Shown here in pieces: positions 4,084 through 49,214 of a DNA stretch of 64,000 nt (positions are counted from its first letter, which is position 1; every line of letters begins with the position of its first letter). Source of the DNA: a virus; the IMG/VR virus record IMGVR_UViG_3300042880_000288, positions 1 to 64,000 of that record; one strand, 5' to 3'. The notes under the pieces were generated by a model. It made no database searches. It worked only from the letters and a program-made list of their open reading frames with translations, and was not told the DNA's origin. Made by a program: the position numbers and the translations under genes.

Positions 4084-4085
4084 AT

Positions 4086-18234: not shown

Positions 18235-18288
18235 ACTTATTAAGTTTAACGATTAAATTAAAATTTAGTATATTTAGTATATAGTATA
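18232..18288 (+). promoter_or_regulatory. Palindrome TAAACTT-ATT-AAGTTTA plus three tandem TAGTATA copies upstream of ATG 18293
   Basis: Perfect 7-bp inverted repeat at 18232-18248. TTTAGTATA at 18264 and 18273, TAGTATA at 18282. A near-identical palindrome occurs at 24378 and TTTAGTATAT at 1828. Confidence 0.5.
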
Positions 18289-18292
18289 ACCT

Positions 18293-27400: not shown

Positions 27401-27645
27401 ATCCTTTAGGTGGTCATGAGCTTAATTTTACAGTTCCACCTGTCTTAAGTTCAGGTAGTAATCAGTATCAATATCAATCTAAAATAAATGTGTATAATCC
27501 AGAAACAGGTAAGTTAGAAGAATATTCCGGATGGGAACCTACATTTACAAATGGTCAGGATATAGACGGCATTATAAAAGATTGGGAAGATATGTCAGCT
27601 CAAATCAACCTGCAAAATCAAAATATTAAATACGGATTAGAATAA
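24442..27645 (+). CDS. Internal virion/ejection protein, function unknown
   Basis: Helical N-terminus MATYLQGVTDYIPQFQPFQPDLNFY... of a kind seen upstream of crAss-like giant genes. No Cys seen in 1067 aa. Heads the ejection-protein block. Confidence 0.65.
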   Translation: MATYLQGVTDYIPQFQPFQPDLNFYASLMQTKQSQYDSNWKALNKVYGQYFYADLTRDNNVKKKEDLLKQIEFNLKRVSGLDLSLEQNVNQATQVFKPFYEDKNLMKDMAWTKTYNRETGRANALKGSAKEEDRKQYWDTGLKELNYRKDEFKEATDEEAMGMAGVSYTPYVNTMEKALKLAKDAGLSVESVKFTDDQRWIITQKNGQQLIEPLEKLFESSLGSDPGIQSVYKTQAYVNRKDYAFSNAGEFNGDKNAAEMKYLENSFNILKKQRDLQYKSIQKNSDVYDKRINDLQKLIDDKKAPVGSEDKLQDLKDNKKINDDVLARIQKESEMFSNSNSTSTTSSGWTNPYSDVATLRYKVDAGMASTLMEKDFGEAAQIYAYRDAKTSIKENPYKVLEIKHSQEMQQIHTSGAYKIQAQQMANQSREKVAAAKIQADAIKAEKERKADYDKWRVETGNGVYEEYEVTDAQGNKIIDPNTNQPLKDFRVVGNPNQKVTTKTIPNDNLTPIPDNKKANVYDVEKQNLANAQKKAQTDQALNTVFNTLNKLQNKIGPGDLAKLINPDYALAKDKDPMMSGLSAYMDNKGGILAGANQYMKDLMLVSKGTKDLMKVEDIQKGFQEKGADYLMSLSKKYGDTYISGLVERVDSYLAANAPYSPEFEMERQAMQGYVKPLKDYGKYEKVYFQWKDKADKAVAQQMTAQKEMIAAKEYSLKMTDSRGSIFQTKKEFLDANPTYTKLAQETFTGQSYGSSINSPGLGITGTGGRQSTFDEATNQAWNKYLQQVNKIQQKGGIPAGPAAASINGLVNNVFQNAANSVVANQKGGDGRRYYNEMMSTILNSGIAFDGKDGILTYGGFKQSAIKDAKEAETQQKLYTILNDFNTRFNDFTKPQPAIEIGGVLFAAGEKNRAGNFIRLPKEFLDGYYNQADPKKGFLSKDEYDGLLQNGLSIMADSDKIMNSLIEGTFTSPLEAVLKYNKELNFVDPLGGHELNFTVPPVLSSGSNQYQYQSKINVYNPETGKLEEYSGWEPTFTNGQDIDGIIKDWEDMSAQINLQNQNIKYGLE

Positions 27646-33600: not shown

Positions 33601-34995
33601 AAGGAAACTAAAGAGAAAGCACGTAAAATTACATTTAAAGAAGCTCAGTTTATTTTAAATACTGTTAGAAAAGTACAAGATGAAATAAGACAACTTGAAG
33701 AGATTAAAAAAGATTTGACTAATCAGATTAATTATTACAATAATCTAAAAACTGATCCATCAATGAGACTTATTAATAAGTCTGAGATTAATCAAAAGAT
33801 TGTTAAGGTTAAACGTAAGATATCTACAATTGAAAAATTAATAAATATCTTAAGAAATGCAATTAGAAAATCATTAGAATATCTTCAAGAGTATTTAAAA
33901 ATCTTTAATAAATATAATACTAAACTTGATAGATTCAGAAAAGATACCGGTTTCCAAGAATTATCAGCTGATGAAATTAGAGCATTGATTGATTCTTTAG
34001 ATCCAAATGATGTATCTACACTAGATAGATATCCTCAACTTAAAAAACAATTTGACACTCTTGTAGATAAAGTTAATAAATCCATGGATGATGTTGAGTT
34101 TACTGATGAAGTCATTCAAGTTGAAAGAGATAGATTAGAAGAATTAGTTGCTGCCCATAAAAAGTATAATGATCAATTAAGATACTTGCAAGAGTTATTA
34201 GAACCAGTTGCTGCTGATGCATTTTATGAAAGTCCTTTGTCTGATAAAAATGCACCTGATGCACCTAAACCAAAAACAGGTGGTACTCCTGCTCAACAAA
34301 GAATTCAAACTAGAATTGAAGAAACTAATAAAGAAATCCAAGATGCTAAAGATGATATGGGTGACACTGTAGGATCATTTAGTCTTAGTGATATAGAAGA
34401 AGCCCCTAGTGGACAACCTGCTGTTAAAACTGAAGGATTTAAAACTCTTTCAGATATGGTAGAAGCTGCTAATGATCTTATTGAATTAAATAAGATCTAT
34501 GATGTAATTACTGACTATACTTTAACAGTAGATGAGTTAGATCAACTATCAGATCTTATTGATCAGAGAACTGAAGCATTACAAACTAATACAGCAACTA
34601 TTACATATAATGAAAATAATATTTCAAAAGGTGATAGATTTATCGTAAAAAATGCTATATTTATTAATAAGGAAATTTTTGCAGAACCAGGAAATTCACT
34701 CTTTATAGAATCTGTTAATGAAAATGGAGTTACAGTATATAAAGTGTTGGGAGGTGAAACAGAAAATCTTACCTTTGAAGAATTAACTAATAATACAACT
34801 CTTGATAACATGTCAAACATCCCACAAGAAGAACCAGTAGTTCTATCTACAGAAGATAAAAATGTAATTAAATCTTCATTAGATGCAGCTAATTCAATTA
34901 CTACAGATGACTTAGATGCAGTTAAAGATTCAATTAAAAATAAATCAATGGATGATTTAGAGAATGATTTATTAGAAACTAATGTTTGTGAATAA
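27652..34995 (+). CDS. Giant ejection protein with PD-(D/E)XK nuclease domain and long coiled coil
   Basis: AGEIDLLIVD...SIVDIKSG...YLLQQTAYANM (D at 32635, DIK at 32677-32685, QQTAY at 32761). Gly/Ala-rich hydrophobic helices near the N-terminus and a heptad-rich region at about 33300-34250. Directly upstream of the vRNAP gene. Confidence 0.75.
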   Translation: MAEDTGIPFNPLDPLGPDVGKVDLPTIDPIGLSPFEGDNINVPTLENYKNVYDIPAVNILPPQSRLVNQAPNVRQLATGTVPGKTPSPVKSSASDRAMAWMAKWKGQNATRNAQPKDSFGRIYSYKDAPNGDAFMERYQAFGQEKFDELGFSPIRNNEALYNDNTTWWQRHSRMMTNSFWPLFFRGFVSGPKSLAKAMTGDFSADPEEADFYERAAAIGQDSTGGFGSFFNNTAMNFGYTAGIITEAIAEEGIALLLAPETGGASVVAATANNMRKLGTVGKTISMSRKLPNFASKGMNLNRASRAQAVARSSAAYGKVLNNSIKGIGGTINGSRGFWNAVRTNNIVKFLNPLDNTIDAIAGVGKNLDNLTGLAKSYQVVNKTAGGLYRDMRALNMALSEARLEGGLVQNSTYEKLYNDYYMKNGETPDDEMQRAMLQQAIDAGQETLLWNVALVYGTNKITFPNIMGPKGGIKNFLRSKTDDILNLDSKVGKMVIRKNKDVVKKGGLKNKYKGEFVEYSFKETLKSFAKDPIRKSAKGALVYLKGNIAEGLQENVQETLSMGLENYYVNKFESNALRAHLFNRAATEYSKDKSEYISEAWKKFNPFTSEGFEIFASGALMGLFASPINQSVEWASIAYNKNFNKEEYNKYIEAKSNYAKGVAATMNRMYSDPQAFFESKIFNYATQDQIFSAKKFGSRKIALDASDEAIVDTVTAFLETGNYDMLKHYIGEYNNMTAEEIEEDLGLEKGLGQKYKDRVNNVLDKANQIEETYNEINKRYPSPINLGDYKKGTDEYKRAAIFNSAWNLAKRNAVFLNSSYKDSLERMSSIVNAVSSDPSLSKTLSARDMEMLTNVSKMKSERDMLKAEIDAVKGSGTASRFDLTGAGKKQKKLDALDEFIKAYDYFQNYEVFDIEEQLDYLEAEGKLKDIKDNDGNALSEKDAREEAKKFLLAKLKVEPKSEEATLQAKTNLETAYKNFLRASANLNEGTYFEEGADKAFELLLDHYKLGRESNIMADYINLLHNPKEFAEHVERNYEWMSRLYENRQDHYDKLVNKQLAHIELNAILNALADRNVFISEEDAINFLRNPRMIPEEFFDNTRKAVIREGHPEYEELRTLFVIASATAIRGVADPTNEDLERNLDFLDEEMQKEIDALPQIEVKRGIKSLDTMGDPFVGIQAVFDQLGNDQYIEVSYLDAAGKEQKQIFYKKDDQLYYDNDKGNKVELDAITAQFLDGDIYTLKLEPKDQEAVKEIKERYAQRRIDYINKMSEKVANTAAEEAQNRFIPFTSATPYEDMDVELRELLAGAYNEYLDDNPELMEKVVDLDDYAYAEERDSFIRTNRIAKEIIDRYNKKKLAEQATTPTGEIEAPVIEINGQMIDFATLTDAQIRNKIRSLTKAADKLSEDIEALPEDKRNKADIERLAKMRFNINLAEKYLANRVKNNRSAKMETVKDIINREILRFQDGITKTSNNSKYVIDDDLYTRVTTAIESLKKDAYNYKNINIVLAEFNKTIGQGKSVDDFIAALKTRLPIGTDGMSKYVYKVLARNLKQVIEPEDPKAKKLSADELKNYLKEQISELTYEESRIGGNYLDAEIRKFLDEGEAQFDETKIDKAAFDAIFGPNSVLAKLKTRQDNGEIKIYANNIKLFDKDSKIAGEIDLLIVDREGAVSIVDIKSGNKDKWSGFHDAANPYSKKETYLLQQTAYANMFYNMTGIMPKVYLLPIEIESDPNVDLDEKTGLPIGGKILTAKYATSPVQLGENLIVLDPNTAYGDETIQEKVDTLIPRKEFVPAEPATTPLQEVSDEEFQDFVDNRNVSQSRLDDITYKISRGIELTERELAISQEFVADINFKLIQLAQQEQENQVGDDAESATGKAVLDEVSKALTESEKETRQRNIDILNRRISILESRALENDKSLGELQDTLGFLQNMLDSSVEIAGLEFEALMNSANSLYELANKLKSAKQVKRGEKIKARAGQYEKETKEKARKITFKEAQFILNTVRKVQDEIRQLEEIKKDLTNQINYYNNLKTDPSMRLINKSEINQKIVKVKRKISTIEKLINILRNAIRKSLEYLQEYLKIFNKYNTKLDRFRKDTGFQELSADEIRALIDSLDPNDVSTLDRYPQLKKQFDTLVDKVNKSMDDVEFTDEVIQVERDRLEELVAAHKKYNDQLRYLQELLEPVAADAFYESPLSDKNAPDAPKPKTGGTPAQQRIQTRIEETNKEIQDAKDDMGDTVGSFSLSDIEEAPSGQPAVKTEGFKTLSDMVEAANDLIELNKIYDVITDYTLTVDELDQLSDLIDQRTEALQTNTATITYNENNISKGDRFIVKNAIFINKEIFAEPGNSLFIESVNENGVTVYKVLGGETENLTFEELTNNTTLDNMSNIPQEEPVVLSTEDKNVIKSSLDAANSITTDDLDAVKDSIKNKSMDDLENDLLETNVCE

Positions 34996-37900
34996 TGAAA
35001 ATTACTTGTGCTCTTAGTAAAGAACATTTACTAAAACTTGCTGCTGTTATATATAAAGATATTGAATCATACCAAGCAGAGAATAAAGCCTATGATGCCA
35101 GAGTTTTAATGAATCAGTTATATGATAAATTAAATAAAGCACAAGGTCAAGAAGTTGCCTTATCTTATATGCAACAGATGCCATTTTTAGTTGGTCAAAT
35201 TGCTTTTAAAGAAAGCACTGAGCTCATTGAAGATTTTGCTATTAATGATCTATTTAAGTTAAATAAAGAATTCAGAAATGAAGATTCTGGAGTTCAATCT
35301 TTATTAAATTTTTTTGGTAAGACAATTGATGCATCTACTCTAAAACTACTTGCAGATGCAGAGTTAAATAATCCTGTTGAGAATGATGGGCCACCAATTG
35401 CTGAAGAACCTCCAATAGAAAAATTTACTGATAAGAGATTAAAAGTTTTAGTTGACAATGCTATATCAACTACCTGGGAAGAGTTTTTAGAAATGGATCC
35501 TAATTTAAAAGTTGATGAAACAATAGAGAATGTAGATCCTGCTAAAACTACTGTATATAATACACTAGATAGACTTAGAAAGTTAACTTCTGGTGGAACT
35601 GCCTTAGATACTATAGTAATGGATGATAACAAGGTTAAACTTAGAGTTTGGTCTCTTAATGCATTTCCTCAAGACTTACTATATCAAAAGACAAAAGATC
35701 TTAAACAAAGAATAAATACATTTCAATCTGGTAAAGCTAAAGATCAAGGTGAAGTAAAACCGGTTACTGAACAATTCATGGTTGTTCTTACAAATGAAAA
35801 AGGTCAGATACTTTATTTTAATGAAGCAGGTGTTGTTACTCCTAAAGAAAATGGAGGTAAACCTGTTTATCAAATGCTAAGAGATGTTAGATTAGAGAAA
35901 GGTGGTGAGTATAGAGTTACAGATATATATGGTAGAGAGGATATGATCCTTGGTTCTGCTCAAACTGCTCAAGCAAGAGTAAAACAAATGGGTTATAAAT
36001 CCATTGATATGTTTGAAAAATCTGAAGGTGTTAAGTTCTCAGATTTTGTAAATCAAATTGAAGAAGAAAGACAAGCAAAGTTTAAAGAGTATTATGATTT
36101 TAGACAGTCCTTAATTGGAATGCCAGCTAATAGACAAATATTTTTACCACTTGTTGATGTAAGTAATGGTGTTAGAAATGGTAGAGTTAGACCAGGAACT
36201 ATGAACATCAATAACTTAAGATCCTTTACTCCTGAACAAGCTGAAGCTATACTACAATCAATTACATTATTAGATACTGATTATATTACTGAAGATAGAA
36301 CACTTAAAGCTAATACATCAGCTGTTCAAATTAATGGAGAAGTATTTGAAGTTGACAGACCAGATATATCAACTGATCTGGCTACAAAAATAGCTAAGGT
36401 GCTTACTTCTAAAGATCTAAGTATTACAAGTAAGTTGGACTTTGTTCAACAGTTTTTAGATAACGCATTAGATGAAGATGTTAGAAGACATTTTATAAAG
36501 TATGATGCTGACCAAAAAAAATTAAGATTTTTATATAGAACATATATAAATGCTCAGTTTAAAGAAATTAAAAAAACAAATCCAAAAGCTGCAAATACAT
36601 GGTTGGAAGTTGATTTAACTGGAGGCCCTGCAGCTGAAGCAAAAATTATTGAAGTTCTTTTGAAAGGTAAAGGAACTTTAAAAAAAGAGAATAATAAAAT
36701 TGTATTGGATAAGAACGGTATTCCTGAAGTGGGAAGATATTATCCAGCTAAAATTAAATACGATAAAGGTTTACTGCAAGACGGTACTTATTTTGATTAT
36801 ATAGAAGATCCAAATAAACCTGGAGAATATATGTTCAGTGTAGGTTCCTATAAAACAGGATTACTTCCAACAATGGATGCTAAAATTGTATTAGGAAAAT
36901 CTAAATCAATTCCTTTGTTTAATAGCTACATGATTTTTGCAATTCCAAATGCATTTTCAGAATCTATTGATCAAATTAAAGATGAGAATGAAATAAAAGG
37001 AGAGCCTTCAGAAATACGTAAGAAGTATAATGAGTTAGTAGATATATTAAAAAATTCTCCTGATCAAAATCCAAGTTTAAAAGCAACAGTTACTGAATTA
37101 GGAAAGATAACACAGACACCTACAGGTAATTATAGAAGTATTGATATTACAATTGAAGGTCAAGAAGGAACTTTTAGATTGTATAGAGTTGTAGATACTA
37201 GTGCTAAAGTTGGAGATGAGATAAGTTTAATACTTAGAGATATTGAAGTACAAGATGGTATGGGATATCCTAATACTATTGTAGGTGTAAGAGATTTTGA
37301 AGGTAGAAGATATGACTTTGGATTCTTACAAGACTCATTCCGTAGTAAAGAATATAATGAACCATCAAGACAACCTGTACCATTAAATACTGAAGCAATA
37401 GAGGAAGCTAAAGAAGAAGAAGAACTTGATGATATAACAGATACACAATCTGAAGTAGGTGAGAGTAAAGATATTCCAATAACTCCTATTGAACCTGGTA
37501 AAGGTAGTATAGGTAGAATACTTGATGAGGATCCGGGGTTTGTTCTTGATAGAAAAACATGGCTGAGTCAATCAGGAATTACTCAAGAGCAATTAAATAA
37601 TGCAAAAGATTGGTGGGAGAATTCATCTTCTGGTAAGCTTTTAAATAAATACATTGAACTCAGTGTAGCAGCAGATTTAGTTAACTCTGATGTATATGCA
37701 AAATTTATTGCTAAAGGAGCATGGCTTTTAGGTTATGCTGATTACAAATTACAGCCAGGTAAACTTGGAGTTATTGCTTTAAATCCCCGTAATGGTGGGA
37801 ACTATGTAGATGTTTATCATGAAGCTTGGCACGTATTTTCTCAGTTATTCATGACTAATGAACAAAGAGTTAAATTATATACAGAGTTTAGAAATTCAGA

Positions 37901-40900
37901 TCCTGCATACAAGGATATGTCCTTCTTTGAAATAGAAGAAAGACTAGCAGAAAACTTTAGAGAGTATGCAAGAAATCCTAAACCTGTTAAAAGTCAACCT
38001 GTTAGAAATACATTATTTAGAAAAATATTAAACTTCCTAAAACAATTATTCGGTAAGGTATCTCCAAAAGATATCATTGATCCAAATATAATGGAAATAG
38101 GAATGGTTAATGAATTGTTTGAAGCTCTTTATTTCAATAATGATAATGTATTAAATAAATTTTCTCCATCCGTAGATAATTTAAAATGGGATGAACTTGA
38201 TAGAGGAGTGGTTGTAAAAACAGAAGAAAAGAATTCTAAGGGTAAAAATATAAAAGTTGAAGTACTGAATGAACAAGATGGTAGAGCTCTTGCAAATACC
38301 ATTGATTCTGTACTATCTGAAATCATTGATGAAAGTTCTAAATTTTATAATAAAAAATCAGGAACTGTAAAAATCTTAACTGATTCCTATAATAAAGGTC
38401 TTGCTTATGATAAGGTTAGAAAGAAGTTCATAGAAGATATTAAACAATGGCAAAAAGAACTTCTTATTAAAGATGCTAAGTTTGATACCTATACCACTTT
38501 AGATCAATTAGATTCAAATGCCTTTGCTGTAATAAGAAGTAAAAAAGGTGATCATAAATATATTTTCTTAAGAGGTCAAGTTGAAAGTTTTAAAAATCTA
38601 ACAGCTGATACTAAACTTGGAGAAAGAGAGAAAGGAAAACTATACAAAGACAATATTGAAATTGTAGCAGATTACTTTGAACATGATTTAATTAAAGATA
38701 GAAAAGGAAGAGGAGCAAGTATAATAATTGTTGATAGTAGACAAGAAGCTGAAGATCAATTTAAAAATTATATTGAAATTGATCCTATTACTAACGAACA
38801 AAAGGCACCTTCAATACAATCAATTAAATTTAATGAAGATAGAGTTGCTGCAAGATTATTTACTCCAGAGCAACAACTTAAATTAGATAACATTAGAATC
38901 TATGAAACAGCACTTAAACACTGGGATTCTATTATTGCTCATCATGAAAATAACTCAACCTTTGATATAATTAAACAAAAATATATCTTACTTGAAGAAG
39001 ACCCAAGTACAAACTCATCATTAGATACTACAAGAGCTAATGAAACTAGGACTGGGGATAAACAAATTGGAGAGTTTACATTACAGGAAATGGCTAATAA
39101 AGAGACTGTATATATATTAAAAAGTCTCTTTAAGAAAGAAAAGAAAGGAACTGGTTATGTTAATGTATATGATAGATTTGGTAATAAACAATTAGCTGAT
39201 TTTAGAACAGTATGGAATGCCGTTGTAAGAGCCACCAATAGTGCAAAAGATCCTCAAAAAATATATGATGCACTTGTAAATGCTGCCAAGTTTTCTCCAG
39301 AACTACAACAGTTAATAGATTATAAGTTGCCTTTACCAAATCAAGTAAATCAATCTTCTTCTGAGTTTGATATTACTACTTCATTCTTTACTGATTTTAG
39401 TAGACCAAAAGTACCATATATTCAATTGTTAGCTTTTGATGATGGTGTAGAATTCTCAACTGAAGTAACAGATGCTGGTATAGATGTAAGTAAAACTTTA
39501 AAGATATTTGAGGCTAAGTTCCGGTCAGATAAAAATGATTCATACATTGAAAAAGATAATAATATATCCAGACTTAATTTAAATGCTGTATTGCAAAATT
39601 TTAGAAATAAAAATAGTGCAAATTTAATTCTTGATGAAGATAAAGCATTTAAGTTTCTTACATCCATTGGATTCTATTTTGATGATCTTACTGCTATTAA
39701 AGATGAATTAAAAGATTTCAATAATAGAAAGTATTATTATATACCAAGAATATTTGAAACAATCAAATTAGTACATGAAGCTAGTTTAGATCCTAACTTA
39801 TCTAAAGAAGGAAGAGAATTAATAAATAAGTTTAGAATGAGTCCATTGAGGGTATTAAGAAGTGGTATACCTGAAAATGTATTGGGTCAGAAAGATTCTT
39901 CTTTATACAAAAATGGGCTTTCACAAAAGACTATTGTTGATAGACTGCTTACATTACAAAGTAAATACGGTAAAACCGGATCTAATTTTAGTGTATTAAA
40001 TCCTGAAAGAAACAGAGTTAATTTACATACTGATGATAACACAGCAACAGTAATAGCTGATGCAATAAATCAAGTAAGTAATAAATCTGATATGTGGACA
40101 AAAACACAGTATAGATTATTAAATTCATTTAACCCTGCAGTTAATGCATTTACTAACAGGTCCCAAATAATGAAAGCTTTATTTGAGCCAAGTAATAAAA
40201 GAAGAACTGACAGATTTTTAGAAATTATTATGGTGGCTGGTACACAGCTTACATTAAATGATGTATTTTTATCAGGAACATCAACTACAAGTTTAGATGG
40301 CCAGGGTAAATTCTTACAAGATTTTCATACATTTCTTAAGTCAGGTTATTTAGAGTTTTTAAGACCAGGTTCTAAATCCTCTTCATTTGGATTCATCTTA
40401 CGTGGAGGTTTCCCTATTGATGTAAAAGGTATGGGTAAGAATAAAGAACAACATCTATATGCAGATATAGATGACTTCCTTACTGCAAACAATAAAGAGA
40501 CTGAAGTAATTGAAAGAATTATCCTACCATATCTTGCAGGTGAACTTGAAAGAATAAATAAATTCAAAGAAAACCCAAAAGCAAAAAATTATATAGGGTA
40601 TAATCAAAAAGTCACTGACTCAGGTAAGAGAGCTGGAGAAGAGTATGCAATATTTGAAGGTATACTTGATGATAAAACTAAATCAGACTTATTAGAAAAA
40701 ATAAACAACTCTGGTATAGATTTAATAAACTATCTTAAAAATGATCCTGATTTAAAATCTAGTTTGATTAAACAAATCAAAGGTTATTTTACTACTAGAA
40801 GTACTGATGTTTATAACAGATTAAATGAAGGTAAATATGTAGATCCTAAACTATATAATAAAGTACCTGGTGATTTGACTAAGTCAGAAAAAGAAAAAGT

Positions 40901-43900
40901 TCTTGCAAAGACTTTCATGTATAATTATTGGATTCATAGTGTTGAGACTCAGATATTATTCTTAGGTGACATATCTCAATATAATCATCTTAAAGAAGAA
41001 TTACATAAGAGAACTTCTGGTTTGATTTCAAATGGTCCAAGATTTAGGACTGATACTGCTGCTCAATTATTTATAAATAATAAAGCTTTATGGGCAAAAA
41101 GTACTTATGCATCTACTTTACCTGCTGAGTATCAAAACTTTGAATACAATGGTACATTTAATACCGCCATCATGGAGGATATTACTAGAGATAGTGAATA
41201 CTTAGATATAATTAAAAAAGGTCTTGAAAAAGATTATGCAAAAAGATATGCTTTACTTCCAACAGCAGAAGCTAAAAAACTTATAGAAGAAAGAGTAGCA
41301 AAAGAAATTGCTAAATATACGGCAGATGAAATCAAAGAAGGTGATGGTCAAGGTTATATTACTGTTGATGCATATAGAACATTAAAAAAATTACAAAACC
41401 GTTGGTCAGATCAGCAAGAAGTTCTATATCAAAAAGTAATTAAAGGAAGTGAGATTACACCAGCAGAATATATTGAACTTTTTCCTCCATATAAATTACA
41501 ATACTTTGGTCCATTAGTAGCACAAACAAAAGATTTTGCTAATGGTACAGTTTTACCAGTTACAGCTTTCCATAAGTTTGCCTTGGTACCTTTAATTCCA
41601 TCATGGGTAAAGGGTTCTGATCTTGAAGTATTGCATAAAGAAATGCTAAGGAATAACATTCAATATGCAACATTTGGTAGTGGATCTAAGGTAGGTGCAG
41701 TAACATCTGATGGTGAATTAGATAAAATTTATGAGCCCGGTTCAGATAATAAAAAATTAAAAAGTAAAATAAACTTTACTAAAAATACTATTAATGTTGA
41801 GTACTTAAAAGAAGTAACCAGTGTACCTAGTAAATTAAAAGGTAAAGTTATATTCTCAACTCAGTTAAGAAAATTAATTCTTGAAGGATTATTTATTAAA
41901 GGAGAACTTGTAAATGGTGCTAACAAAGATATAGTAGAAGGATACACTTCATTGGTTGACTCTTATACTAAATTATTAAAAGAAGAATTATTAACTGAAA
42001 TTGGTTATACAAAAGAGAATGGAGTATATGTTGGTAAGCCTGCTAAATTATTAAAATTAATCAAAGACAATTTAGCTAAAAAAGATTACCCAAGTCACCT
42101 TCTTGATGCATTAAAAACAAATCCTGATGGTTCACTTAAGTATGACTTATCAAATTTTATTGATGCTCAAACTATAGAAAGAACTGTATTATCAATTGCT
42201 GAAAATAGATTTGTTAAACAAAAACTAAAAGGAGAAGCTTTAGTTCAAGTAGCAAGTTCCATGACAAATGGTTTATGGACTGCAGGAAATAAATTTAAAG
42301 CAGGATCTAAGGAAGATGTATTAAAGTATATGGGTACTAATAATCTACCTTTCTATTATCCTGGTGAGGATGGTAAAACAAATGCAATGAAAGTTGCTAT
42401 TGCTTTACAAGGAGACTTCTTCAATTTATTAAACTTAAATGACTTAGATGGTCAACCAATTAAGACAAGAGAAAGACTTAATGAACTGATCAAACAAGAT
42501 GAATGGTTAAATAAAGATAACAACCGTAAAGCTATTACCATGACTGCTGTTAGGATTCCTGTACAAGGACTTAACTCTATGGAGTTTATGGAAGTTTGGG
42601 AGTTCTTGGATCCTTCTGCAAGTAATATTATTATTCCTCCTACAGAACTAGTAGCAAAATCAGGGGGTGATTATGACGTTGATAAGCTTACTACATTCAT
42701 GCCTAACATAGATAAAGATGGTAATGTTTATACTTCAGATAAAAATGCAAAAGCTTTACTTGATTCTATTAATGAAGCAGACAGTAAAGATAAAATGGCC
42801 TTAATCAAGCAAGCTAAAAAAGTAATGGAAAATGACTTGATCACTAGTATCAGATCTATTCTTGAATTACCAGAAAATTATGCAACTCTTGTAAGACCAA
42901 ATGATACTTACATGCTTAAAGATATTGCTGATGAATTAGCTGATGTTGTAGTTGATTATGATAAATTCCAAACAGTAAATAGAAAATTCAAAGAATATAG
43001 AATTGTAAAAGGTAAAAAAGCAATTAGTCCTACTACTACATTAGAACCTTTATATAATATTGATAAGTTTAATGGTAACATGATTGGTAAAGCAGTACTT
43101 GGTATTGGTGCCAATGAGAATGCTTTTAGTCCTTTATTAAATTCTATTGGTGCTAAAATGCCATTGACTTATCAGGAAAGTGAATTTGATCCAAAAATCA
43201 ATAAGTATAAAGATATAAAGGATGGTGAAACTTATAGAACAAGATTACTATTACGTCATAATAAAAATGCTGATGGTACAATTTCATTAGCAGATGTAAA
43301 CTCTGTTGATGCTGTAAATAAAATAGCTGACTTGTTTTCACAAGGTATGAATGGATGGGTTGACGTTGAAAAAGATCAGTGGATCTTTTATATTCAAGGT
43401 AACTTAGAAATATCTCCTGTATTACTGTATTTATTAAAAGCTGGTGTACCTGTGAGAGATGCTGTTATGTTTGTGTCTACTCCTCTTATTAGAGAGTATG
43501 CAAATAAACAAAGACTATTGAAAAGTCCATATGCAACTCTAATGGGTATTGCACCTACTGAACCTCAGTTTGCTCAATATAATGCAGCTAATGAAGTATT
43601 AAGTCCTGCTATAGATGCTTACTTGAAAAGAACTATTGATAAAGCTGTATTCTCAGGTTATAGTTTTGATACTGCATCAATAGCTTACTATGGTTTAGGT
43701 CCTAATGGTAGAAAACAATTAATGACTCAAGAGTTCAAAGGAACTGATGATCAAGTGATTAAAGATCAAATTAATGACTTCTTACAATATGTTGATTCAA
43801 ATGATGTCATGAGAATCAATTTTTATCAGCAAGCAGATAGAAGACAAAATAATAAAGTATACAGTAAACCAAGAGTTTCAAATAAAGAAATTTACAATTC

Positions 43901-46900
43901 AGCTGTACAATTAAGTGATAATAATTTAGATAGCTTTGGTAATTTTGATAAAGCTAAAATTGAACAATTAGTTAAGTCTAAAAATGATACTGATAAATAT
44001 TCTGATTTTTCAATGGCTGCATTCTTGCATTTTATTGAGATTGAAAAATATTTAAAGGGTCTAGGTAATGTAAAAAGATTATCTAAACCAGATACTCAAA
44101 CATTTAAAACTATACAAGAGGTTTTATTAAGAGATCTAAATATTGCATACTTAAATGATTACAGTAAAGTTGATAAAACTACTTTTGATAGATTAAGAAA
44201 TGACAGCATTCTTGCTGCTCTTGCAGATAAAGATATAATAACTCAAGTAATAAGTCCATTGTTTTCATTAAGAAATAGCAAGCAAGTATTAGATCAGATT
44301 GTTTCTACTATCAATACTAAAACAGAAGCTCTCAAAGAAAGATATGGTGGTCTTGGAGCAGACAACATTAGTAGGTTTATTGAAGAGTATAAAAATGCCA
44401 TCAATACATTTATACTACAAAACTTCTTAAGTAACAATATAAACTCTAATGGAGAGATTGTTTTAGTGCCGGATACTTACAAAGGTTTTGAAGTTGTTAC
44501 TAATGAAAATCTTGAAACAGATGTTGAAGTAACTGAGAAGGATGGTAAGAAACTTATTAGAGTTAATCCAAAAAGAATTGAAGCTGACTTTAAAAATAAA
44601 AACTACTTAGTAACCAGTAGCTCTAACAACTCTTACAAGTCAAGAGGCCTTGAAGCATTCCAAGTTGGTGATGATGTATTTGAATCTAAGTCAAGTTACT
44701 ATAGATATGTTATAGAAAGAGAGTATTTAAAAAATAAAGGATTTACTAAAGAAGAACTTAACAGTATTGCTTTATTGAATACTTATAATCCATCTGTAAT
44801 ATTGAGAAGAGGTACATATTCTTTTACAGATCAGTTATTAGAATCTATTCAACAGTTTCCAGAACTTTCTAAATATCCTGTAGTAAACCAATTAAGTTTA
44901 TATGCTTTTTCTAATGAATTTAATGTATTAACTTTAAATGATAAAGGTTTACTTGATGGTGCTCAAGCTGATATATATGCTCAGAATATTAGAGAACTAG
45001 CTAATCCAAAAATCCAAAAGATTGCAAACACTAAGGATAATGAAAAAATAAGTAGATTATTTTACATGCTTCAATTAATGGCAACTTACCAACATGGTTC
45101 AGGTCCTTCAATTGATGGCTTTAATGAAATACTACCTCAAGATTCATACTTAAGTGTTATGAATAATGCTAGTCCTTTATTCACTAAATACTATTTTAAT
45201 GAAGATACTCTTGAATATATTGTTGATGTTCTTACAGCAGATAAATTAAGAATTAAGAACTATACAAGCATGCCAACAAGTAATAATACATTTGTTATTG
45301 AGGCTAAAGCTGAAGGTGCTCAACCATCTATTAAACCAACAACTCCTACTTTAACTGTAAATGATCCTAAAGATTTTACAAATCATTCGGGTGGTGCTGC
45401 TTTATCTGATACTGAATGGGATCAAATAGGTAGAGAGTTTGGGGTAACTAATCATAAACATTATAGAGAGCCTTTAGATTATGTAGATACAAAAGGTGAA
45501 GCTGCTAAAGGAAGTAAAACATTAGATTCTAAAAAATTACAAGCAGCTGGTATTGAACCTACTCATATTAGTCAAAAAGACTATAATGAAGGTGCACAAA
45601 AAGCTACAAAAGCTTTTAGAATGATGTATACTGATTCTGAAAATAAATCAGTAAGAAGTGCCTATATTATTCGTAACTGGTTACAAGTTAAAAATGCTGA
45701 TGCCATATTTGCATTAGGTACTATAAAACAACCTGGTGAAAATGCATCTGATAAAGCTGGTGAAACAAGAATAGCTGCTGTCCCTATTGTTAAAGGTGGT
45801 ACAGGATATGCTGTTCAAATGGCTATTAATGAAGGTAAACCTGTTTATGTATTTGATGGTACTAAAGAAGGATGGTATAAGTATGATTATTCAATTAAAA
45901 ATTTTGTAAAAACTGATACACCAACTCTTACTAAAAACTTTGCAGGTATAGGAAGTAGAACACTAAGTACAAAAGAAGTAATAGACAAATCATTACAAGC
46001 CATCAGAGATGTATATACTCAAACATTTGGGGCTAAACAAAAATCAGATGGTACAACAGTTAAATACAAGTACTATGGTGCTATGTATGATATTGTTGTA
46101 GAGAATGGACTTGGTATAGATGTATTAAACTATAAAGGGAAACCGGCTAAAAAAGCAATTTTATTAGCTTACTTTAATCAAAATCCAAATATAGATCCTC
46201 AAAGTACTGGACCTGATCCAATAGTTTTAAGTGATGAAGAAATAAATAATGATGATACAGGTAACTCAGATCCAACAACAGGTAATACATTTACTTTTGC
46301 TGATGGTTATGAGATTGAAACTCCTTTTAAATTAAACAAAGAACAAGAGGCAGCTCTGTTAAAACTTGAAGAATTCTATAATGATCCTAAAAAATTCAAT
46401 AATGAAATTACATTGATTGGATATGCAGGAACTGGTAAAACTTCAATCATGGCTCTCTTTGATAAATGGTTGAATAAAGGATGGTTTGGACCTAATATAG
46501 TATATACTGCACCAACTCATAGAGCAAATGCTGTTACTAAACTTAAGAATCCTAAAATTAAAGTATTAACTCTCCATTCCTTATTTGGATTTGGTCCTGA
46601 AGTAGACTTTGAAGGAATGGATTATGACGTAAGAGATTTACAATTTGCTAATAATAGAAATGGAAAAATTGATAAAGGTCAAATACTTATTGTAGATGAA
46701 TCTTCTATGATTACTGATGAATTATATGATTTCTTAGGTCAGCAAAAAGATAAGTATGATCTTAAAGTTATATACATGGGTGATCCAGGACAGTTAGGTC
46801 CTGTGCAAAATAAAGGAGGCTTGACATCAAAAGTATTTTCTAATCCCACATCTAGTATTACTTTAACTAAAGTAGAAAGAACAGGAGATAATCCTATACT

Positions 46901-49214
46901 AAAAGAATCAACTGCACTAAGATCTGGAGGTTCTTTATCATATCAGTCTGCAGAAATTAATGGAAAAGGTGTTGAATATATAAATAGTACAGCTAGAGAA
47001 AATCAAATACTTGCTGAAAATCTTAATGAAATGAGAGACTCAGAAAACTATTTGTATTTTAGAATGTTAGCTGCAACAAATCCTGAAGTAGCTAGATTAA
47101 ATAAAGTAGCGAGAGAAATATTATATCCTCAAACCTATCAAGAACAATTAGTAGTTGGTGAAATTCTTATGGGGTATGATAATTTTGGTAGAGATTATAA
47201 AACAGGCCAGTCTTTATTATATAACTCTGGAGATTATATGATTACTCAACTTAAGAAAGATAATAAAGAAGTCTATATAACTAATTATGAAAAACAAGGA
47301 GACAAATTTGTAAATATCGGTTTTGAAGAATTGAATTTTACTGGATACAATGTAACTCTTAAAAATCTATTGGATCCAGAAGCAAAACCATTTGAAGTCT
47401 TTATACCAGATATTGTAGGTAATGATGATGCATCTACTAAACTTGCAGATTCTATTCATAAGTTAAACTATATGGGTAAGATTGCTGGTTATGGACAAGA
47501 TAAAGCTAAATATTTTGAAGCAGCTTCTAATTTATCTAAACAAGTATTATTTATGAATGACGTAAAAGGTTTAACTGATAAGTCTAAAATTAAAAAAGCA
47601 ATAGACTATGGTTATGCTCATACAATTCATAAATCTCAAGGTGGTACTTATACTAAAGTATTTATAAATGATCCTAGTATAACAGGATTAGTAGGATATA
47701 TTAAAGATAGAAGAAGACTTACCGATGATCAAGCACAAACTGTTGAAAGACAATTAAAGTATGTTGCTGTATCAAGAGCTACTGACTATGTATATATTTC
47801 AACTAATAGAAGTGCTGCAGGAAAACCTACTAGTTTTGATGATCCGGCCTCTGGAGATTTTGATACTGTAGGAACATTTAATATCAATGATTTAAATCCA
47901 CCATCTAATCCACCAATATCAGGAGAAAGAAAACCTATTGAACCAATAAATGCTCAAGAAATTGAAGATGGTTTAATCTTACAAAAAGGTGTTCTTACTA
48001 AAGAAGAACAAAAACAATTCTTTCAATTTGGTAAAACAGTTCTAGAAAAGAATGGTTATAATCCTTTTGCACAATATGTTATGGCCTCTGCTGGTAAAAT
48101 GGAATGGAGTCCTGAATTTGTAGTTGATAAAAATGGAAAAGGTGTAGATAGACCAGGAAATTATAATACTGGAATCATTCAAATTAAGAAAAACCTAGGA
48201 GGAAGAGACAGTAAAGAAAAAAGATGGAATTATAATTACTACCTCACTAATTTTGATGGTACTACTATAGCTCCAATACCAAATAATATTATAAGTATAC
48301 TAGAAAAAGTTACAGGTCAAGATATGTCTGACTATGATACAGTTCTAATTAACTTATATCCATTAGGTAGAACACTTGGTTGGCATCAAGATATAACTGA
48401 AGATTATAGAAACATGGATAGAGATATTATATCTGTATCTATTGGAGCAGATGCTGATTTTACTTACAATAAAAGAGATAAATTAAGTTATGCTCCTGCA
48501 GCAGATAGTATTCCTGATGGTGTTGTTAATTTAAAGAGTGGGGATGTTATGAGTTTTGGTGGTAAATCTAGACTTGTTCAACATACTGTAACTAATGTAA
48601 CAGGTCAGACAGATTTAGGAACCATAAATCTTGCTAACTCTAATGTAAATAAATATTTTAATGGTGGTTTAAATTTATCTAACTGGAGAATGAACTTTAC
48701 ATTTAGAGTAGCTGATTCTAAAAATAATAATGGTAAAAGAGGATTAGTTTCTACAGTAATTCCAGGTATTAAAAAGTTTGAAGGACAAATGACCTATGCT
48801 TATGGTCAAAATAAAAGAGCTGGTGTAATAGCTAATACAACATTTGATGCCATATTAACGGGTGAAAGAACAGCTACTACAAGATATGAAACTTCAGATA
48901 ATATTGAATACTGGAAAAAAGCCAAAGTTGGAGATATTATTACATGGAAATCTGATGATGGCCGTACTGTAGATGTAGAAGTAACAAGACCACTACATAA
49001 ATTAGTGGGGTCAGGTAAAACACCAACTGATTGGAGCCAACTTGAAGGCTGGTCAATATCTTATTTTAATGAAAAGGTTAGACCTAAACTTGATAAAGCT
49101 TGGCAAATTGAGTTTAAATTACCTGCACCGCCTGCTGCTGAAACAGAAATTAATGATAACTTTATTGATCCTTTTGAAGATGATCAAGAAAATAATTGTG
49201 CATATCCTTTTTAA
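34995..49214 (+). CDS. Virion-packaged DNA-dependent RNA polymerase polyprotein (crAss-like, phi14:2 gp66 type) with zincin, SLOG, SF1B helicase, AlkB and ASCH domains
   Basis: RIPVQG (42552) and GGDYDVDKL (DYDVD 42669-42683) match the DFDID-type double-psi-beta-barrel catalytic motif; also DGQG at 41343. Further motifs: HEAWH 37818, GYAGTGKT 46419, IVDESSM about 46690, HKSQG about 47630, YVAVSRA about 47760, HQD 48384/H 48582/RMNFTFR 48687, GERTATTR about 48860. Confidence 0.85.
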   Translation: MKITCALSKEHLLKLAAVIYKDIESYQAENKAYDARVLMNQLYDKLNKAQGQEVALSYMQQMPFLVGQIAFKESTELIEDFAINDLFKLNKEFRNEDSGVQSLLNFFGKTIDASTLKLLADAELNNPVENDGPPIAEEPPIEKFTDKRLKVLVDNAISTTWEEFLEMDPNLKVDETIENVDPAKTTVYNTLDRLRKLTSGGTALDTIVMDDNKVKLRVWSLNAFPQDLLYQKTKDLKQRINTFQSGKAKDQGEVKPVTEQFMVVLTNEKGQILYFNEAGVVTPKENGGKPVYQMLRDVRLEKGGEYRVTDIYGREDMILGSAQTAQARVKQMGYKSIDMFEKSEGVKFSDFVNQIEEERQAKFKEYYDFRQSLIGMPANRQIFLPLVDVSNGVRNGRVRPGTMNINNLRSFTPEQAEAILQSITLLDTDYITEDRTLKANTSAVQINGEVFEVDRPDISTDLATKIAKVLTSKDLSITSKLDFVQQFLDNALDEDVRRHFIKYDADQKKLRFLYRTYINAQFKEIKKTNPKAANTWLEVDLTGGPAAEAKIIEVLLKGKGTLKKENNKIVLDKNGIPEVGRYYPAKIKYDKGLLQDGTYFDYIEDPNKPGEYMFSVGSYKTGLLPTMDAKIVLGKSKSIPLFNSYMIFAIPNAFSESIDQIKDENEIKGEPSEIRKKYNELVDILKNSPDQNPSLKATVTELGKITQTPTGNYRSIDITIEGQEGTFRLYRVVDTSAKVGDEISLILRDIEVQDGMGYPNTIVGVRDFEGRRYDFGFLQDSFRSKEYNEPSRQPVPLNTEAIEEAKEEEELDDITDTQSEVGESKDIPITPIEPGKGSIGRILDEDPGFVLDRKTWLSQSGITQEQLNNAKDWWENSSSGKLLNKYIELSVAADLVNSDVYAKFIAKGAWLLGYADYKLQPGKLGVIALNPRNGGNYVDVYHEAWHVFSQLFMTNEQRVKLYTEFRNSDPAYKDMSFFEIEERLAENFREYARNPKPVKSQPVRNTLFRKILNFLKQLFGKVSPKDIIDPNIMEIGMVNELFEALYFNNDNVLNKFSPSVDNLKWDELDRGVVVKTEEKNSKGKNIKVEVLNEQDGRALANTIDSVLSEIIDESSKFYNKKSGTVKILTDSYNKGLAYDKVRKKFIEDIKQWQKELLIKDAKFDTYTTLDQLDSNAFAVIRSKKGDHKYIFLRGQVESFKNLTADTKLGEREKGKLYKDNIEIVADYFEHDLIKDRKGRGASIIIVDSRQEAEDQFKNYIEIDPITNEQKAPSIQSIKFNEDRVAARLFTPEQQLKLDNIRIYETALKHWDSIIAHHENNSTFDIIKQKYILLEEDPSTNSSLDTTRANETRTGDKQIGEFTLQEMANKETVYILKSLFKKEKKGTGYVNVYDRFGNKQLADFRTVWNAVVRATNSAKDPQKIYDALVNAAKFSPELQQLIDYKLPLPNQVNQSSSEFDITTSFFTDFSRPKVPYIQLLAFDDGVEFSTEVTDAGIDVSKTLKIFEAKFRSDKNDSYIEKDNNISRLNLNAVLQNFRNKNSANLILDEDKAFKFLTSIGFYFDDLTAIKDELKDFNNRKYYYIPRIFETIKLVHEASLDPNLSKEGRELINKFRMSPLRVLRSGIPENVLGQKDSSLYKNGLSQKTIVDRLLTLQSKYGKTGSNFSVLNPERNRVNLHTDDNTATVIADAINQVSNKSDMWTKTQYRLLNSFNPAVNAFTNRSQIMKALFEPSNKRRTDRFLEIIMVAGTQLTLNDVFLSGTSTTSLDGQGKFLQDFHTFLKSGYLEFLRPGSKSSSFGFILRGGFPIDVKGMGKNKEQHLYADIDDFLTANNKETEVIERIILPYLAGELERINKFKENPKAKNYIGYNQKVTDSGKRAGEEYAIFEGILDDKTKSDLLEKINNSGIDLINYLKNDPDLKSSLIKQIKGYFTTRSTDVYNRLNEGKYVDPKLYNKVPGDLTKSEKEKVLAKTFMYNYWIHSVETQILFLGDISQYNHLKEELHKRTSGLISNGPRFRTDTAAQLFINNKALWAKSTYASTLPAEYQNFEYNGTFNTAIMEDITRDSEYLDIIKKGLEKDYAKRYALLPTAEAKKLIEERVAKEIAKYTADEIKEGDGQGYITVDAYRTLKKLQNRWSDQQEVLYQKVIKGSEITPAEYIELFPPYKLQYFGPLVAQTKDFANGTVLPVTAFHKFALVPLIPSWVKGSDLEVLHKEMLRNNIQYATFGSGSKVGAVTSDGELDKIYEPGSDNKKLKSKINFTKNTINVEYLKEVTSVPSKLKGKVIFSTQLRKLILEGLFIKGELVNGANKDIVEGYTSLVDSYTKLLKEELLTEIGYTKENGVYVGKPAKLLKLIKDNLAKKDYPSHLLDALKTNPDGSLKYDLSNFIDAQTIERTVLSIAENRFVKQKLKGEALVQVASSMTNGLWTAGNKFKAGSKEDVLKYMGTNNLPFYYPGEDGKTNAMKVAIALQGDFFNLLNLNDLDGQPIKTRERLNELIKQDEWLNKDNNRKAITMTAVRIPVQGLNSMEFMEVWEFLDPSASNIIIPPTELVAKSGGDYDVDKLTTFMPNIDKDGNVYTSDKNAKALLDSINEADSKDKMALIKQAKKVMENDLITSIRSILELPENYATLVRPNDTYMLKDIADELADVVVDYDKFQTVNRKFKEYRIVKGKKAISPTTTLEPLYNIDKFNGNMIGKAVLGIGANENAFSPLLNSIGAKMPLTYQESEFDPKINKYKDIKDGETYRTRLLLRHNKNADGTISLADVNSVDAVNKIADLFSQGMNGWVDVEKDQWIFYIQGNLEISPVLLYLLKAGVPVRDAVMFVSTPLIREYANKQRLLKSPYATLMGIAPTEPQFAQYNAANEVLSPAIDAYLKRTIDKAVFSGYSFDTASIAYYGLGPNGRKQLMTQEFKGTDDQVIKDQINDFLQYVDSNDVMRINFYQQADRRQNNKVYSKPRVSNKEIYNSAVQLSDNNLDSFGNFDKAKIEQLVKSKNDTDKYSDFSMAAFLHFIEIEKYLKGLGNVKRLSKPDTQTFKTIQEVLLRDLNIAYLNDYSKVDKTTFDRLRNDSILAALADKDIITQVISPLFSLRNSKQVLDQIVSTINTKTEALKERYGGLGADNISRFIEEYKNAINTFILQNFLSNNINSNGEIVLVPDTYKGFEVVTNENLETDVEVTEKDGKKLIRVNPKRIEADFKNKNYLVTSSSNNSYKSRGLEAFQVGDDVFESKSSYYRYVIEREYLKNKGFTKEELNSIALLNTYNPSVILRRGTYSFTDQLLESIQQFPELSKYPVVNQLSLYAFSNEFNVLTLNDKGLLDGAQADIYAQNIRELANPKIQKIANTKDNEKISRLFYMLQLMATYQHGSGPSIDGFNEILPQDSYLSVMNNASPLFTKYYFNEDTLEYIVDVLTADKLRIKNYTSMPTSNNTFVIEAKAEGAQPSIKPTTPTLTVNDPKDFTNHSGGAALSDTEWDQIGREFGVTNHKHYREPLDYVDTKGEAAKGSKTLDSKKLQAAGIEPTHISQKDYNEGAQKATKAFRMMYTDSENKSVRSAYIIRNWLQVKNADAIFALGTIKQPGENASDKAGETRIAAVPIVKGGTGYAVQMAINEGKPVYVFDGTKEGWYKYDYSIKNFVKTDTPTLTKNFAGIGSRTLSTKEVIDKSLQAIRDVYTQTFGAKQKSDGTTVKYKYYGAMYDIVVENGLGIDVLNYKGKPAKKAILLAYFNQNPNIDPQSTGPDPIVLSDEEINNDDTGNSDPTTGNTFTFADGYEIETPFKLNKEQEAALLKLEEFYNDPKKFNNEITLIGYAGTGKTSIMALFDKWLNKGWFGPNIVYTAPTHRANAVTKLKNPKIKVLTLHSLFGFGPEVDFEGMDYDVRDLQFANNRNGKIDKGQILIVDESSMITDELYDFLGQQKDKYDLKVIYMGDPGQLGPVQNKGGLTSKVFSNPTSSITLTKVERTGDNPILKESTALRSGGSLSYQSAEINGKGVEYINSTARENQILAENLNEMRDSENYLYFRMLAATNPEVARLNKVAREILYPQTYQEQLVVGEILMGYDNFGRDYKTGQSLLYNSGDYMITQLKKDNKEVYITNYEKQGDKFVNIGFEELNFTGYNVTLKNLLDPEAKPFEVFIPDIVGNDDASTKLADSIHKLNYMGKIAGYGQDKAKYFEAASNLSKQVLFMNDVKGLTDKSKIKKAIDYGYAHTIHKSQGGTYTKVFINDPSITGLVGYIKDRRRLTDDQAQTVERQLKYVAVSRATDYVYISTNRSAAGKPTSFDDPASGDFDTVGTFNINDLNPPSNPPISGERKPIEPINAQEIEDGLILQKGVLTKEEQKQFFQFGKTVLEKNGYNPFAQYVMASAGKMEWSPEFVVDKNGKGVDRPGNYNTGIIQIKKNLGGRDSKEKRWNYNYYLTNFDGTTIAPIPNNIISILEKVTGQDMSDYDTVLINLYPLGRTLGWHQDITEDYRNMDRDIISVSIGADADFTYNKRDKLSYAPAADSIPDGVVNLKSGDVMSFGGKSRLVQHTVTNVTGQTDLGTINLANSNVNKYFNGGLNLSNWRMNFTFRVADSKNNNGKRGLVSTVIPGIKKFEGQMTYAYGQNKRAGVIANTTFDAILTGERTATTRYETSDNIEYWKKAKVGDIITWKSDDGRTVDVEVTRPLHKLVGSGKTPTDWSQLEGWSISYFNEKVRPKLDKAWQIEFKLPAPPAAETEINDNFIDPFEDDQENNCAYPF
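37600..38060 (+). other. Zincin-like metallopeptidase domain within vRNAP polyprotein
   Basis: VYHEAWHVFSQLF followed by EERLAENFREY and LFRKILNFLKQLF, an HExxH...E pattern. Boundaries approximate. Confidence 0.7.
45375..46032 (+). other. SLOG (DprA/Smf/YpsA-like) domain within vRNAP polyprotein
   Basis: HSGGA..SD, RNWLQVKNADAIFALG, KGGTGYAVQMAINEGKPVYVFD and NFAGIGSR give the Gly-rich GGA/GGT Rossmannoid loops of the SLOG superfamily. Boundaries approximate. Confidence 0.6.
46326..47810 (+). other. RecD/Dda-like superfamily 1B helicase domain within vRNAP polyprotein
   Basis: Q motif LNKEQEAAL, Walker A GYAGTGKT, Ia APTHRA, II IVDESSM, III GDPGQLGPV, IV LTKVER, V YAHTIHKSQG, VI YVAVSRA, all in the canonical order. 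Confidence 0.9.
47964..48710 (+). other. AlkB-family 2OG-Fe(II) dioxygenase domain within vRNAP polyprotein
   Basis: LINLY....LGWHQD, IISVSIGADADF, LKSGDVMSFGGKSRLVQHTV and RMNFTFR supply HxD...H iron ligands and the RxxxxxR 2OG-binding motif. Confidence 0.85.
48774..49120 (+). other. ASCH (PUA-like) domain at the C-terminus of vRNAP polyprotein
   Basis: FDAILTGERTATTR...KVGDIITW...VDVEV...LEGW...WQIEF follows the ASCH pattern (GxKxxxxR, here GxR). Confidence 0.65.

Follow-up and report, generated by a model that had tools for sequence, protein, structure and literature searches.

The closest described relatives of the gene treated here are the virion RNA polymerases (RNAPs) of crAss-like phages. 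In phage phi14:2 the polymerase gp66 is packaged in the virion and transcribes the early genes, with single-stranded DNA (ssDNA) or denatured DNA as a far better template than duplex DNA; the same work noted a zincin domain and that gp65, gp66 and gp67 are fused as a 'huge polyprotein' in some phages (10.1101/2020.03.07.982082). The homologues in phage crAss001 were detected in virions by mass spectrometry (PMC10172136), and giant multidomain transcription proteins have been noted for crAss-like phages. Related to these are the polyvalent proteins described in 2017, which include N4-type virion RNAPs fused to zincin peptidases; crAss, AlkB, ASCH and SLOG are unmentioned there (PMC5512222). Here we analyse gene B, a gene of 4,739 amino acids (aa) found in a window of 64,000 nucleotides, i.e. 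positions 1 to 64,000 of the virus record IMGVR_UViG_3300042880_000288, which is 120,701 bp long and judged complete. By its sequence gene B is a recurrent metagenomic variant of the known crAss virion polymerase, built as a polyvalent protein. The gene runs through 4,739 codons without interruption, and we recognised the following parts in it (positions are those of the window).

34995..49214, plus strand: gene B, giant virion-type RNA polymerase with accessory tail, open frame of 4,739 aa.
37515..38294, plus strand: probable zincin-like metallopeptidase region, aa 841-1100, with HEAWH at aa 942 (37818-37832) and a Glu helix at aa 981-991.
41097..43694, plus strand: RNA polymerase core, homologue of phi14:2 gp66, aa 2035-2900, from profile hidden Markov models (HMMs) and phmmer.
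45360..46040, plus strand: SLOG-fold domain, aa 3456-3682, from an AlphaFold (AF2) model, VIA-align and Foldseek, nearest to the circularly permuted YpsA / MoCo-carrier group.
46065..46274, plus strand: element before the helicase, about 60 aa conserved, from the BLAST map of relatives.
46329..47816, plus strand: superfamily 1 (SF1) helicase of RecD/Dda/Pif1 type, aa 3779-4274, from Pfam, PHROG 325 and motifs.
48189..48707, plus strand: AlkB-type Fe(II)/2-oxoglutarate dioxygenase, aa 4399-4571, from PF13532 and motifs.
48837..49130, plus strand: probable ASCH-like domain, aa 4615-4712, with a YqfB-like GxRTxTxR motif (GERTATTR at aa 4623).

The polymerase was beyond the reach of simple searches. 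Pfam and PHROGs scans of gene B recognised no polymerase, zincin or SLOG, and a phmmer search with the whole protein against PDB sequences and the phi14:2 proteins did not find gp66, so that profiles were needed; for the polymerase such failure is as expected for a fast-evolving family. We built profile HMMs from the gene B protein and its database relatives and searched them against the phi14:2 proteins. The one for aa 2250-2900 matches gp66 1077-1696 (E 3e-76, 246 bits) and aligns the stretch with DYDVD at aa 2559 (42669-42683) to the catalytic DFDID at 1361, and the profile of aa 2001-2250 matches gp66 897-1076 (E 1e-18). Further, phmmer connects the core to phi14:2 gp66, crAss001 gp50 and gp14 of phage cr118_1. 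Profiles of the N-terminal region, the zincin region, aa 1101-2000 and aa 2900-3420 gave nothing convincing in phi14:2 gp65, gp66 or gp67. From these alignments we firmly assign the core to the crAss-type virion RNA polymerase family of phi14:2 gp66.

A first look at the letters alone (the sequence-only reading) had taken gene B for such a polymerase with extra enzymatic modules, and this identification holds. That reading had also described a protein about twice the size of gp66, with the order N-terminal region, zincin, RNAP core, SLOG, helicase, AlkB and ASCH, linkers between the modules and largely intact catalytic motifs. The measured ratio is 2.17 (4,739 versus 2,180 aa), the motif positions give the same order, linkers rich in P, T, D, N and S separate the modules, and the motifs of the RNAP core, the helicase and AlkB are present. 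The count of five accessory domains stands in part: the helicase and AlkB are firm and SLOG is firm at the fold level, while zincin and ASCH are probable only.

The helicase and AlkB modules were both recognised by Pfam. Helicase families scored 75.5 bits for AAA_30 (cut-off 27), 48.8 for AAA_19 (above its cut-off) and 30.6 for UvrD_C_2 (cut-off 27.4), and PIF1 followed with 23.3, just under its cut-off of 25.9. The same region matches PHROG 325 (Dda-like) with E 3e-72, and Walker A, Walker B and motifs Ia, III and VI are present (GTGKT 3812, DESSM 3901, GDPGQLGPV 3929, VAVSRA 4257). The assignment to SF1 helicases of RecD/Dda type is hence firm by sequence. In 27 of the 121 relatives mapped below, the element of about 60 aa (...YFGAMY...YKGK...NxDPQ) immediately precedes the helicase, whatever surrounds it. 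Equally firm from its motifs is the AlkB dioxygenase, which scored 73.9 bits against PF13532 (cut-off 31.2) and has AlkB-family matches in PDB; it keeps the HxD...H iron triad (WHQD 4463, LVQHT 4527) and the RxNxTxR 2-oxoglutarate motif (RMNFTFR 4565).

For the SLOG module the fold had to come from a model. No Pfam match was found with E up to 10, including PF12694 (circularly permuted YpsA / MoCo carrier), a search of its profile against PDB sequences found none, and no Pfam domain is present in some 200 standalone relatives, each about 200 aa long. The motifs HSGGAALSD at 3464 and GGTGYA at 3601 are found in the module, and the GG..D and GGT loops are invariant among relatives. The AF2 model, based on an alignment of 45 sequences, reached a predicted local distance difference test (pLDDT) score of 88. 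VIA-align superposed it on 3IMK, a member of the MoCo-carrier / permuted-YpsA group, with Z 11.8 and a root mean square deviation of 3.4 over 146 of 158 residues; the next matches were DprA, ShosA, YpsA and LOG at Z 5.1-6.4, with DprA at 5.9-6.4. Foldseek also gave 3IMK as its best match, at E 0.034 only, and it was VIA-align that settled the fold. On this model the module is a SLOG-superfamily domain of a family absent from Pfam, an assignment that is firm at the fold level only. As a match to PF12694 was lacking, we file the module under the superfamily only.

Viral SLOG and NADAR domains have been predicted to counter immune signals derived from NAD and ADP-ribose (PMC9503650). The SLOG module resembles the viral YpsA-like SLOG clade of that study in its Rossmann-like fold, in being phage-borne and in the combination with NADAR in relatives; the difference is that the viral domains are typically standalone in phages, while the one in gene B is built into a virion polymerase. 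The N4-type virion RNAP of Klebsiella phage Pylas also embeds a relative of the module (about aa 984-1158, at 6001-6525 of the Pylas sequence, 38% identical, E 3e-27), hence one and the same module seems to sit on two unrelated injected polymerases. Some relatives are named 'DprA-like' in phage records.

To see how the modules are arranged elsewhere, we used aa 3400-4739 as query against proteins restricted to 2,606-8,294 aa and mapped the segments on the best 121 relatives by BLAST. Giant database relatives sharing tail modules form at least 737 clusters, and 116 of the best 121 carry the polymerase core. Among these best 121 of 737, SLOG, helicase, AlkB and ASCH follow the core in 18 different orders; the full set occurs as core-helicase-SLOG-AlkB-ASCH in six clusters and as core-ASCH-AlkB-SLOG-helicase in one, and the module order of gene B was not found. 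The same slot in relatives also carries NADAR/YbiA, ART-PolyVal and other domains. Relatives in IMG/VR picked via the zincin region include a tail-less core form of about 3,250 aa, and others with different or unknown tails, up to 4,449 aa.

The identities of the single modules do not follow those of the cores. The SLOG module is 95% identical in the relative P0008, where it is placed after the helicase, and 82-85% identical in proteins with cores only 22-26% identical; in relatives with 47-63% core identity the SLOG copies are just 29-41% identical. This discordance indicates that the module has been exchanged between lineages.

A described protein of similar layout is gp14 of the uncultured crAss-like phage cr118_1 (Suoliviridae, NC_055872), of 4,946 aa. 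It has a zincin motif (HEAFH 1734), a polymerase core (DFDID 3209), a C-terminal SF1 helicase and a Cys tail, and the next protein has a single Cys at residue 3. It differs from gene B in that BLAST found no SLOG, AlkB or ASCH, the core is only 23% identical, and the upstream protein seems fused on, with no N-terminal Cys. The gene (4012-18852) is annotated as 'exonuclease V' in RefSeq and 'DNA helicase' in GenBank, names which hide the polymerase.

The sequence-only reading had left room for the architecture being both common and characterised. Common it is, judging by the at least 737 relatives and the cr118_1 fusion; as to characterised, we found no paper describing a helicase/SLOG/AlkB/ASCH tail on a crAss polymerase. 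The idea of a 'first-minute toolkit', which came from the same reading, is reasonable; it restates the published concept of polyvalent proteins (PMC5512222) and the observation that gp65, gp66 and gp67 are fused in some phages (10.1101/2020.03.07.982082). Gene B shares with these the presence of several unrelated enzymatic domains in one giant phage polypeptide and, probably, a zincin-like peptidase as a hub, and delivery with the DNA, a jump-start of transcription and counter-defence were already proposed there. The polymerase in those proteins is of the N4-type single-subunit kind, whereas gene B is built on the two-barrel crAss polymerase.

Gene B has the genome context of a crAss-like phage: structural genes are followed by nine giant ORFs (open reading frames) on the same strand and then by a replication module on the opposite strand (PolA, exonuclease, ATPase). 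A megablast of gene B against 50,697 phage records gave no match. The start codon ATG of gene B and the stop codon TAA of the upstream 2,447-aa ORF share one base, and the downstream ORF of 1,934 aa starts nine bases after gene B. The products of the two neighbours are called A and C in the following, and we list them together with the tails of gene B that face them.

27652..34995, plus strand: upstream cargo protein A, 2,447 aa, relative of crAss001 gp47, single Cys at residue 2446.
34995..35054, plus strand: N-terminal tail of gene B with Cys5 (codon 35007-35009), invariant in 30 relatives, predicted interface with the C-end of A.
49131..49211, plus strand: acidic C-terminal tail of gene B, ...ENNCAYPF, with Cys4735 (codon 49197-49199), a Cys kept in 122/122 giant homologs.
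49224..55028, plus strand: downstream cargo protein C, 1,934 aa, single Cys at residue 5, HEFSH at aa 189, weakly like phi14:2 gp65.

Protein A matches crAss001 gp47 with E 7.5e-9 and protein C matches phi14:2 gp65 weakly (E 0.007); gene B is thus flanked by gp67-like and gp65-like giant genes, as expected for a crAss virion RNA polymerase. The locus resembles the trios gp67-gp66-gp65 of phi14:2 (gp66 is PDB 6VR4) and gp47-gp50-gp49 of crAss001 in the polymerase core with DxDxD, the place at the end of the structural/cargo block, the three consecutive giant proteins, the rule for terminal cysteines described below and a zincin-type HExxH within the trio. It differs in that gene B is 2.2x longer than gp66 and carries a SLOG/helicase/AlkB/ASCH tail of about 1,300 aa which is absent from both cultured phages.

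The distribution of cysteines ties the three proteins together. In the gene B protein, with its 4,739 residues, only residues 5 and 4735 are Cys, and A, B and C together (27652-55028) have four in 9,120 residues, all at mutually facing ends (codons 34987-34989, 35007-35009, 49197-49199 and 49236-49238, the first for A 2446 and the last for C 5). A Cys lies within the last 8 residues in all of the 122 giant homologs, against 0.75% expected for each, whatever fills the slot. At 48 IMG/VR loci this terminal-Cys rule is followed by 34 of 38 polymerase ORFs, by 40 of 41 ORFs upstream of them and by 28 of 28 downstream. It holds as well in phi14:2 (gp67, gp66, gp65), in crAss001 (gp47, gp50, gp49) and in cr118_1, and crAss001 gp47 is encoded on the other strand yet follows it. 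In alignments of 30 relatives no column but the Cys is invariant over the C-terminal 199 aa of A, and over the N-terminal 200 aa of B only Cys5 and one further column are. In fused A+B forms (P0010, P0011), which exceed 5,300 residues, the only Cys is the one at the C-end, and the junction pair is gone. The A/B break shifts between lineages, the zincin motif being about 940 aa inside B here and about 185 aa before the end of gp47 in crAss001, and the Cys pair flanks the break in both. We rejected a lipoprotein reading of the N-terminal Cys, since it lies at residue 3-6 and no signal peptide is present, and an intein reading of the junction Cys, as an intein domain is lacking and each gene has a stop and a start codon of its own.

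We modelled the C-terminal 199 aa of A in complex with the N-terminal 200 aa of B; the score was 0.76, and the best of three controls scored 0.00. Of 80 solved complexes 58 pass the mark used for such scores, as do 2 of 110 mismatched pairs; both counts are rough, since custom alignments were used here. The runs share at least 49% of contacts with partner pLDDT of at least 57, and the predicted interface includes A residues 191-198 and B residues 2-18, which hold both cysteines. The model supports binding of the C-end of A to the N-end of B. A precedent comes from the pre-ejectosome of cyanopodophage A4, in which cryo-EM (cryo-electron microscopy) showed a disulfide from gp27 Cys1715 to gp26 Cys5, C-end to N-end (PMC12002296). 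The likeness is a C-terminal Cys bonded to Cys5 of the next ejection protein, as Cys2446 and Cys5 meet in the predicted interface here; the differences are that A4 belongs to another phage group and that its bond was seen, whereas ours is only predicted, from Cys conservation and the model. For the virion of crAss001, disulfides were reported for tail and capsid proteins only (PMC10172136). B is probably joined head to tail to A and C via the terminal cysteines, in disulfides that the cytoplasm would reduce. The variable slot comes before the conserved Cys clasp, an order that speaks for the modules remaining on the packaged cargo.

Three more giant ORFs upstream are free of Cys (9626-14122 with 1,498 aa, 14122-18234 with 1,370 aa and 24442-27645 with 1,067 aa), and neighbouring structural proteins have 8-21 Cys. 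These three may also be cargo that is ejected and has to unfold. In the 1,498-aa protein, aa 138-307 resemble a lysozyme/transglycosylase. In protein A, aa 1641-1722 (32572-32817) match PHROG 298 'exonuclease' with E 7e-10, hence A may also carry an enzyme.

The zincin-like region shows the motifs HEAWH at 942 and EERLAENFREY at 981. The H, E and H of HExxH and E142/E146 of the Glu helix, about 40 residues on, are invariant in 37 relatives. Its profile gave a weak match to PPEP-1/Zmp1 (E 0.54) with HExxH and EExxAExF aligned, and the model was partly confident (pLDDT 65) with no sheet resolved; weak fold matches were 3DL1, a putative metal hydrolase, at Z 5.0, PPEP-2 at 3.8 and lethal factor at 3.5. 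Pfam gave no match to the region and a Foldseek search with the zincin model found nothing, and its neighbours in the protein-cluster atlas were 'large polyvalent protein-associated domain' clusters. The weak matches agree on zincins of the lethal-factor/PPEP kind, so we consider a zincin-like metallopeptidase in the N-terminal region probable. The region is homologous to the HEAFH region of crAss001 gp47 (aa 2154-2205). The place of the motif thus differs, being ahead of the core in the polymerase chain in gene B, in gp47 in crAss001 and, as HExxH, in gp65 in phi14:2. A second HExxH is found in protein C (HEFSH at aa 189, 49788-49802), where phi14:2 gp65 has HEIMH at aa 245, and the A-B-C trio may hold two zincin-like sites.

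The C-terminal domain scored 14.4-14.8 bits against ASCH (PF04266), under the cut-off of 21.2. Sub-threshold matches to ASCH were seen in 6 of 14 relatives (best E 0.008), more often than to any other sub-threshold family there. In the protein-cluster atlas 22 of its 30 neighbours were ASCH clusters, and one relative of the region is named YqfB by JGI. A PDB search with the ASCH profile brought up a spurious repeat protein and nothing else. The GERTATTR motif is similar to GxKTITIR in E. coli YqfB, a hint rather than a test. Together these matches make ASCH the probable identity of the domain.

With a probability of roughly 0.7, we read gene B as a virion-type polymerase with an exchangeable helper and counter-defence kit, a polyvalent protein on a crAss polymerase and the middle link of a cargo chain. 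The protein has four parts, namely an N-terminal region with the zincin-like motif, the gp66-type core, a variable slot and a short conserved C-terminal tail bearing the Cys. In this phage the slot holds SLOG, the SF1 RecD/Dda-type helicase, the AlkB dioxygenase and probably ASCH. Like gp66 and crAss001 gp50, the protein would be packed in the capsid and ejected with the DNA. The tethered helicase could then open duplex DNA for the ssDNA-preferring polymerase, AlkB and ASCH could clear exposed ssDNA or nascent RNA of base adducts or modifications, and the SLOG domain could bind or degrade nucleotide-derived immune signals. As B would be tied to A and C by the terminal cysteines, the slot would travel inside a single A-B-C cargo chain.

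Further, we speculate that the slot is hot-swappable between the polymerase core and the Cys clasp. SLOG, helicase, AlkB, ASCH, NADAR, ART and other modules would be exchanged between barely alignable polymerases, even those of N4 type, and a chain A-S-S-B-S-S-C of about 1 MDa would be unclasped by the reducing cytoplasm and, within the first minute of infection, bring in a kit for counter-defence and template opening that is specific to the strain. This extended form is tentative, and we give it a little less than even odds.

Several points weigh against the kit as we read it. Packaging and ejection of gene B are carried over from its homology to gp66 and crAss001 gp50, the disulfides rest on conservation and the model while virions assemble in the reducing cytoplasm, and the zincin and ASCH assignments, based on motifs and sub-threshold matches, are probable ones. 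The 121 relatives were chosen by tail likeness, so the module frequencies are biased, and no helicase was found in the IMG/VR relatives picked via the zincin region. Finally, sequence alone cannot separate counter-defence from self-repair.

This last point leads to the alternative that survives best, in which the tail serves the nucleic acids of the phage itself and not counter-defence. Here the helicase would melt the template, AlkB and ASCH would mend alkylation or acyl damage picked up by the packaged genome outside the cell, or remove a base modification made by the phage itself, and SLOG would be a DprA-like nucleotide- or DNA-binding accessory. The need of gp66 for a single-stranded template and the nature of AlkB as a repair enzyme family are in line with this, as are the fold matches to the DNA-binding SLOG protein DprA and the 'DprA-like' names of relatives. 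However, the modules are freely swapped and absent from many close relatives, which fits accessories of an arms race better than housekeeping, and the NADAR/YbiA and ART-PolyVal domains in the same slot belong to a theme tied to ADP-ribose conflicts (PMC9503650). We therefore regard a purely self-serving tail as unlikely.

The modules could also be left behind, if the zincin or a host protease cut them off before packaging; they would then have a late role in replication or repair, and the fusion would serve co-expression only. Self-processing by zincins has been proposed for polyvalent proteins (PMC5512222) and for the activation of gp66 (10.1101/2020.03.07.982082), and the inter-module linkers would be accessible to a protease. 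Such a cut is nevertheless hard to reconcile with the Cys-bearing tail that comes after the modules in every one of the 122 homologs. By the rule above, its Cys is matched by an N-terminal Cys in the next protein, a pairing that would be pointless if the C-end were lost from the cargo. Gene B also lies in the late structural/cargo block and outside the replication module, and we consider this alternative very improbable. An assembly chimera, or a sequencing error merging several genes, is practically negligible, as the exact 4,739-aa sequence is recorded on five contigs from NCBI, JGI and Logan, six separate clusters (P0003-7, P0009) with 49-52% identity in the tail region are collinear from first to last residue with the same module set, base composition is uniform along the gene, and the N- and C-terminal Cys motifs bracket the whole ORF; the open frame at 34995-49214 is real, as first proposed.

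CrAss-like phages are the dominant members of gut viromes and are also frequent in water. With a helicase of its own on board, such a polymerase would give an idea of how an enzyme preferring ssDNA starts on duplex DNA, and exchangeable enzymes for base repair or signal handling may give an idea of which host defences shape crAss-like phages. The module map further corrects database names, e.g. 'exonuclease V', for such polymerases.

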